Shown piece by piece: positions 30,337 through 30,624 of a stretch of DNA of 64,000 nt (its first letter is position 1; each line of letters begins with the position of its first letter). The stretch comes from an uncultured Poribacteria bacterium (GTDB lineage: Bacteria > Poribacteria > WGA-4E > WGA-3G). Location of the stretch: NCBI GenBank assembly GCA_951813565.1, contig OX638351.1, forward strand, positions 1,760,001 through 1,824,000, written 5' to 3'. The position numbers were made by a program, and so were the translations under genes. The notes beneath the pieces were generated by a model. The model was given only the letters and a program-made list of their open reading frames with translations. It did no database searches and had not been told where the DNA came from.

Positions 30337-30410
30337 TGAAACTAACTTTTCATAACTCTGAGCATTAAAAGGAGCAAGTTCCTGTAGGTTGGGTAGAGTG
30401 GAGCGAAACC

Positions 30411-30574
30411 CATAGCTGTCAATTTAGGGATATATTTCTTGTGGGAGTGAATCAATGCCAAAAGCGCATGCTGCGTTGATTTGGATATAACGGTTTGAGT
30501 CTCAAAAATCGGGCTTTCAAGGTTTCCCTCCCACAAGAGATAAGCCAGCATTTTTTCTTAAGTTGACAGTTATG
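30411..30574. mobile_element. CAT-ended MITE with 19-bp REP-derived duplication
   Basis: CATAGCTGTCAATTTA / TAAGTTGACAGTTATG; flanks GGTAGAG(T/C)GGAGCGAAACC. Confidence 0.8.
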
Positions 30575-30624
30575 GGTAGAGCGGAGCGAAACCCAACAAA
30601 ATTAAAATTATACGGAGCAAACAA

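Follow-up and report, generated by a model that had tools for sequence, protein, structure and literature searches.

Short CAT-ended repeats with 18-20-bp flanking duplications in a Poribacteria genome: very probable MITEs of an IS231-like IS4-family insertion sequence

Background

The length of the duplication that a mobile element leaves in its target is taken as a hallmark of the transposase family, since it mirrors transpososome geometry at the target. A 64-kb stretch of an uncultured Poribacteria genome (contig OX638351.1, positions 1,760,001 to 1,824,000; hereafter the window) raises a question in this respect. It contains several short, CAT-ended elements that are embedded in REP hairpins and other sequences and are bounded on both sides by near-direct repeats of about 19 bp. 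Are these repeats genuine target duplications, and if so, which enzyme generates them and what sets their length? In the initial annotation, the elements were ascribed to a structure-guided integrase that cuts both arms of a REP by a Cas1-like logic and that would also amplify REPs.

CAT-ended elements in the window

The CATAGNTGTCAATTTA motif has 11 matches in the window at up to two mismatches, compared with 0.24 expected, and none of 100 shuffled sequences reaches 11. Eight of these matches make up four inverted pairs, i.e. four complete elements with CATAGNTGTCAAYTTAAG inverted ends (Table 1). Positions and lengths proposed for them earlier agree with the motif matches, and so do the two solo ends at 39436 and 61921. 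The weak match at 6225-6240 is possibly a relic end or a product of chance.

All four complete elements are flanked by near-direct repeats of 18-20 bp. In three of four cases the repeat is a REP core, and the outer REP arms (GTTGG...CCAAC) stay outside of it. The fourth element lies in other DNA: its duplicated 20-mer has only three copies at up to three mismatches. A short unit, "AATCAA(C/T)G + hairpin" (e.g. GAATCAATGCCAAAAGCGCATGCTGCGTTGATT), was observed in the interiors of MITEs at 30448-30490 and 31765-31800, and also at 61860-61885.

Table 1. CAT-ended elements, their flanking repeats and related features (window positions, unless genome positions are indicated)
Feature	Position	Strand	Remarks
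MITE copy 1	13492..13631		140 bp; motif matches at both ends
MITE copy 1, left flanking repeat, decayed	13474..13491		compared with 13632-13650: 1 mismatch and 1 gap
MITE copy 1, right flanking repeat	13632..13650		aligned to left copy
MITE copy 2	30411..30574		164 bp, non-coding; CAT-ended terminal inverted repeats
MITE copy 2, left target duplication, 19 bp	30392..30410		GGT...ACC REP core; 18/19 identical to 30575-30593
MITE copy 2, right target duplication, 19 bp	30575..30593		aligned to left copy
MITE copy 3	31536..31830		295 bp; hairpin repeats nested inside
MITE copy 3, left flanking repeat, decayed	31515..31533		REP in opposite orientation; compared with 31831-31848: 1 mismatch and 1 gap
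MITE copy 3, right flanking repeat	31831..31848		aligned to left copy
MITE copy 4	52226..52407		182 bp; motif matches at both ends
MITE copy 4, left target duplication, 20 bp	52206..52225		low-copy non-REP sequence; 19/20 identical to right copy
MITE copy 4, right target duplication, 20 bp	52408..52427		aligned to left copy
Solo left end, truncated element	39436..39451	+	no partner end, no flanking repeat
Solo right end, truncated element	61906..61921	-	abuts REP half
Weak end-like match	6225..6240	+	2 mismatches; directly before ATG opening an ORF
Copies with GACCCCGCC/GGGCACCAAATCAACGG flanks	genome 527438, 974448, 2029705, 2632616, 2634431, 3730455, 4162007, 4427576 and others

A genome-wide family

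In the genome (Candidatus Poribacteria; 5.43 Mb in a single contig), ends with no more than two mismatches number 182 on the plus strand and 206 on the minus strand. These ends give 131 adjacent left-right pairs, 113 of which are shorter than 700 bp and span 54-658 bp. Among these 113, the best-scoring flank repeat measures 19 bp in 40 pairs, 18 bp in 14, 20 bp in 10, 17 bp in three and 21 bp in two; the remaining 44 pairs lack a repeat of 17-21 bp, their longest repeats being 12 bp at most. Under a stricter cut, a 17-21-bp flanking repeat with at most two mismatches, 53 pairs are retained (33 with 19 bp, 10 with 18 bp, 8 with 20 bp and 2 with 17 bp) and 60 of 113 are lost, compared with 0 of 20,000 random positions that qualify. 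The flanking repeats noticed in the window are thus real there and recur genome-wide. Grouped by their outer flanks, the 53 flanked elements represent 39 independent groups.

The elements are small and non-coding, have terminal inverted repeats and target duplications, occur in many copies and have their ends in common with an autonomous IS. Taken jointly with the mechanism set out below, the reading that they are non-coding hitch-hiker copies (MITEs) of a Tn5/IS231-type element is one in which we have high confidence.

About 12 MITE copies display the same two unrelated flanks (...GACCCCGCC to the left of the element and GGGCACCAAATCAACGG... to the right) and no duplication. It seems that the element with these flanks either sits in a larger composite repeat that spread later or lies at a rearranged hairpin.

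Flanking repeats and empty sites

For each of the 53 flanked elements, the predicted empty site was rebuilt and searched against the genome. A spanning match was retrieved for 27 of them. In 21 of the 53 cases it is an uninterrupted paralogue with a single repeat copy and no element end within 25 bp; the other six spanning matches merely touch neighbouring elements. In all six pairs inspected side by side, the empty paralogue holds one copy of the 18-19-mer, with identity of up to 100% over 108 bp. In one of the inspected cases the element has inserted into a non-REP repeat of 21 copies. Since paralogous empty sites hold a single copy, the flanking repeats are regarded as true target duplications. 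The possibility, raised at the outset, that the flanking REP halves travel as part of the element is not borne out, because repeat sequences differ widely and the empty paralogues hold one copy.

An independent signature of duplication comes from adjacent elements, which share one duplication copy: when gaps of up to 60 bp between a right end and the following left end are considered, 12 of 13 measure 18-23 bp. An insertion that duplicates the whole target leaves two targets behind. Outside the window, at genome positions 4532453-4533173, three MITEs are found in tandem with identical 20-bp duplication copies between them. Another MITE directly precedes a broken IS at 267598-269141, one 20-bp copy being common to both.

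Free amplification of REPs by the elements, as initially envisaged, was not seen: among the first 60 of 65 tandem 17-20-mers there is no free tandem of REP cores, i.e. no excision footprint consisting of two tandem cores without an element. Each insertion leaves just one extra REP core, beside the element.

Genomes of the same genus were compared over window positions 30330-30640 and 52150-52560. No clean orthologous empty site was found in them for the elements at 30411-30574 and 52226-52407, the intergenic regions being too rearranged. Both regions are hypervariable among these relatives and contain differing REPs, tandem repeats or nothing; some are without any REP. In the window the REP-bearing stretch looks as if it had itself been inserted, with a short GGAGCA(A) repeat on either side.

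The cognate transposase

The search for an autonomous element with the same ends, recommended in the initial annotation, yielded a broken copy in this genome and intact copies elsewhere. The broken one is a 1544-bp element at genome positions 267598-269141, in which an IS4-type transposase gene lies in pieces in different frames. A protein search of the genome detected no further transposase copy besides it. As this single copy is not intact, the MITEs of the present genome are orphans and probably immobile now. Their putative link with this transposase rests on common ends of about 20 bp.

The NCBIfam model NF033592 (IS4 family; cut-off 115) matches three intact homologues with 215.9, 208.2 and 203.6 bits, and a 274-aa piece of the broken copy with 97.5 bits. 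Intact homologues are 438 aa long. The IS1634 family model gives a weak partial match (44.6 bits), below its cut-off of 100. The autonomous element contains one ORF, which codes for a DDE transposase (PF01609, NF033592), and no Cas1-family enzyme; the suggested Cas1-like integrase is not supported.

An alignment of 33 sequences reveals that D119, D191, E324, R320 and K331 are invariant in all of them. Spacing of the catalytic triad, 71 and 132 residues between D119, D191 and E324, fits D(60-110)D(100-150)E. Arg, Glu and Lys of the YREK motif are present in 33 of 33 sequences and Tyr in seven (4 of 30 in the Poribacteria clade, 3 of 3 among short-duplication relatives). In the long-duplication clade this Tyr, residue 317, is mostly replaced by Ala, Val or Ile. 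An AlphaFold model (pLDDT 81.7) has Tn5 transposase 4dm0_A as its best solved match (E 8.4e-10), and the top five matches among solved structures are all Tn5 transposase chains (E 8e-10 to 1.5e-8, TM about 0.5). Sequence search of solved structures retrieved no transposase, only a chance antibody match with E 0.55.

According to Table 1 of PMC2266710, the IS231 end signature is CAT-------AA--TAA---, and direct repeats measure 10-12 bp in IS231 and 7-13 bp across the IS4 family. The ends CATAGGTGTCAACTTAAGAA fit every fixed position of this signature. The IS4 family, in which CAT ends were initially noted to occur, is thus supported both by the NF033592 score and by the end signature. In short, the transposase belonging to these elements is of the DDE type and of the IS4 family; it has a Tn5-like fold and goes with IS231-type ends.

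Intact copies in other Poribacteria

In a sample of Poribacteria, a transposase match with E of at most 1e-40 was obtained for 34 of 121 genomes. Of 71 loci with intact copies (about 1.45 kb) in other Poribacteria, 50 have flanking repeats of at least 15 bp with at most one mismatch. These repeats measure 17 bp at 7 loci, 18 bp at 8, 19 bp at 21 and 20 bp at 14; exact duplications of all four lengths occur, and the mode is specific to the lineage. Duplications are 18 bp in 7 of 7 cases for the lineage with a 1446-bp IS, 17 bp in 5 of 6 for that of 1459 bp, 19 bp in 5 of 5 for that of 1464 bp and 20 bp in 8 of 8 for that of 1488 bp. They are 19 or 20 bp, tracking the palindrome, for the lineages of 1451 bp (with one 17-bp case) and 1470 bp. 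The remaining 21 of 71 loci have no detectable ends (4) or are bounded by unrelated or inverted flanks.

Some intact copies (L005-L008, L018, L025, L045, L105 and L109) have different sequence on either side, which points to IS-mediated rearrangements in these genomes. At L007, L025 and L045 the two flanks consist of oppositely oriented REP cores, an arrangement that recombination or inversion between two copies would produce. At some of the repeat-less loci REP halves stand in inverted order, which would fit recombination between copies.

Among 19 further loci, 17 have both ends identified, with 18-20-bp repeats of at most two mismatches in 15. Within this set, such repeats accompany 10 of the 12 copies with identified ends in one genome (G001; 1457-bp IS). 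Eight targets in G001, judged by eye not to be REP-like, have exact or near-exact duplications of 18-19 bp, and two targets in genome G118, likewise not REP-like by eye, have the same 18-20 bp. Exact 20-bp repeats in unique DNA flank elements of a lineage of 45% identity from another Poribacteria family.

Pooled events with at most one mismatch number 98: 7 of 17 bp, 15 of 18 bp, 49 of 19 bp and 27 of 20 bp. Lengths are thus 17-20 bp in 98 of 98, as opposed to the IS4-family norm of about one helical turn (7-13 bp). Ordinary short duplications by the cognate IS had been named initially as an outcome that would refute the idea of REP-targeted long duplications; those of the cognate IS are long too.

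Target choice

The REP targeting described initially was confirmed. Of 39 independent MITE insertions, 32 are located in sequence families of at least 10 copies, 3 in families of 3-9 copies and 4 in unique sequence; REPs are the main targets.

The duplication begins with G in 90 of the 98 pooled events and ends with C in 92. A G just outside on the left and a C just outside on the right are likewise favoured. Symmetric half-site preferences of this sort are known from Tn5, Tn10 and IS231. In the GGGT...ACCC REP the cuts are placed 3-4 bp inside an outer stem, and in the GTGCGGTT...AACCGCAC hairpin they lie at its base. One and the same REP type is cut by two IS lineages at spacings of 17 and 18 bp, respectively.

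REPs are presumably preferred because their stems supply inverted G-rich/C-rich half-sites at the right distance. Mid-stem as well as stem-base cuts, spacings of 17 as well as 18 bp, and non-palindromic targets indicate that half-sites would explain the preference for REPs without a folded hairpin. The cutting of both REP arms under guidance of their structure is therefore not supported: cut position varies with the REP type, and the eight G001 sites demonstrate that a hairpin is not needed. The related expectation, that duplication length depends on hairpin size, stands in part. Within the 1451-bp and 1470-bp lineages the choice between 19 and 20 bp follows palindrome size, so the target has some say in the placement of cuts, but the same length is also found at non-palindromic targets. 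This flexibility by one base shows that half-sites help to place the cuts.

Relatives beyond Poribacteria

Two relatives of about 35% identity occur on Chloroflexota plasmids, one in Candidatus Chlorohelix allophototropha with an exact 20-bp repeat and the other on Herpetosiphon aurantiacus pHAU01 with an exact 19-bp repeat. Both elements are single-copy in the plasmid collection. A metagenome scan with the Herpetosiphon protein gave two loci, one of them partial and one with ambiguous flanks of 19 bp at six mismatches.

The next relatives, 25-28% identical and found in Clostridia and Bacteroidota, have 11-bp repeats, with GGG-N5-CCC in 3 of 4. A target of GGG(N)5CCC was reportedly described for IS231A by Hallet et al. 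in 1994. The long-duplication elements have half-sites similar to those of the 11-bp relatives, at a spacing about 8 bp wider.

In a maximum-likelihood tree, short- and long-duplication sequences are split by a long branch with support of 99/100 (row L081, a wrong or truncated ORF of 235 aa, is to be disregarded). The short-duplication side includes the "IS231-related" transposase of Bacillus thuringiensis. Element ends of a B. thuringiensis IS231-related copy (L099) were not found within the stretch examined. Compared with the 11-bp relatives, long-duplication proteins are devoid of a stretch of 13-16 residues after residue 227 (227-228) and of two smaller stretches.

Mechanism and alternatives

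We propose that the DDE transposase would join one element end to each target strand, at positions separated by about 19 bp, and that repair would then fill both single-stranded gaps, giving rise to target duplications of 18-20 bp. By analogy with Tn5 and IS231, the reaction would proceed by cut-and-paste via a Tn5-like dimeric transpososome. The wide spacing of active sites, nearly two helical turns where other family members have about one, would be a property of this transpososome. REPs would serve as hot targets whose stems offer inverted GGT/ACC or GTG/CAC half-sites at a fitting distance. It is very likely that the four window elements are MITEs of an IS231-like IS4-family IS and that their 18-20-bp flanks are true target duplications arising by this mechanism. 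The wide stagger is most likely intrinsic to the enzyme and not dictated by hairpin shape, because one lineage mostly hits unique, non-palindromic DNA with the same 18-19 bp.

Under capture guided by structure, an extruded hairpin or cruciform would be what the enzyme recognises; it would cut at a fixed point in each arm, and the hairpin would dictate duplication length. The palindromic nature of most targets would suit it, with 32 of 39 independent MITE insertions in repeated sequences, and so would the effect of palindrome size on length in the 1451-bp and 1470-bp lineages. We nevertheless consider it unlikely, given that the duplications keep to 18-20 bp at targets that are not REP-like (those of G001 and G118, and others), that the cut position is inside the stem for one REP type and at the base for another hairpin, and that two lineages cut the same REP type at different spacings.

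Another explanation is that the two ends integrate loosely, without coupling, and that repair follows; this has been put forward for IS1634 and IS1549, which likewise give long repeats (8-514 bp according to PMC2266710). The weak partial match to the IS1634 model would be in line with this, but that match stays under its cut-off while the IS4 model scores well over its own, and the tight lengths with lineage-specific modes make such looseness very improbable. Least credible of all is that the flanks belong to the element, or represent the core of a site-specific or homologous recombination between an element-borne and a genomic REP. Many copies do have the same REP-derived flank (e.g. seven identical ones); these identically flanked copies, however, sit in a larger repeat that spread after insertion. 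Flanks in general differ widely among copies and include unique DNA, element-free paralogous sites hold one repeat copy, and what the IS encodes is a DDE transposase rather than a recombinase.

Our preferred reading, a wide stagger made by the transposase itself, might be extended to the whole clade. We suggest tentatively, as a proposal that could go either way and that we favour slightly less than its opposite, that a Tn5-fold clade of Poribacteria and Chloroflexota moved its two strand-transfer sites apart, from a distance of about one helical turn to one of nearly two, tunable between lineages from 17 to 20 bp. If true, this implies an architecture of target capture unlike that of any solved DDE transpososome, and each insertion regenerates its own target, seeding tandem arrays of elements.

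Close relatives making 11, 17, 18, 19 or 20 bp form a natural series, which provides a direct handle on what sets the geometry. For annotation, it matters that tools seeking duplications of 2-14 bp will set the boundaries of these elements wrongly. Insertions in these symbiont genomes duplicate entire REP cores and give rise to tandem arrays, by which intergenic regions are reshaped.

Comparison with known systems

REP targeting by an IS4-family member (ISRm22) and long repeats of variable length (IS1634, IS1549) are already known. In full-text literature searches we found no 17-20-bp duplication for an IS4-family element and nothing on MITEs or IS4 elements of Poribacteria; a curated ISfinder entry with a 19-bp repeat may exist.

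ISRm22, of the IS4Sa subgroup of the IS4 family, also has copies in REPs, palindromic sites and G/C repeat ends, and it inserts at the symmetry axis of the REP with a 6-bp repeat, as reported by Tobes and Pareja 2006 (PMC1525189). In contrast, the present clade duplicates the whole REP core, and REPs are not obligatory for it. With IS1634 and IS1549 it has in common direct repeats that are unusually long among IS4 relatives, but theirs vary from 8 to 514 bp (PMC2266710) and those described here keep to 17-20 bp. Casposons and Cas1 spacer integration also involve a staggered attack on either side of a palindromic repeat, with duplication of that repeat; since the enzyme here is a DDE transposase and a hairpin is not needed, the likeness is one of outcome only.

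The closest counterpart is the IS231 subgroup of the Bacillus cereus group (IS231A, ISBth4 and the MIC231 cassettes). It likewise encodes a DDE transposase with Tn5 fold in a single ORF, and the CAT-------AA--TAA--- ends (Table 1 of PMC2266710) and symmetric G-rich/C-rich target ends are alike. MIC231 cassettes and the MITEs are both non-autonomous derivatives that have only the ends in common with their IS. The "IS231-related" and ISBth4 transposases of Bacillus thuringiensis plasmids align over the full length, at an identity of only about 25%. In contrast to IS231 with its 10-12 bp, the present clade duplicates 17-20 bp and forms a separate clade across the 99/100 branch. Its proteins are about 30 residues shorter, lack the 13-16-residue stretch after residue 227 and have mostly replaced the Tyr of the YREK motif.
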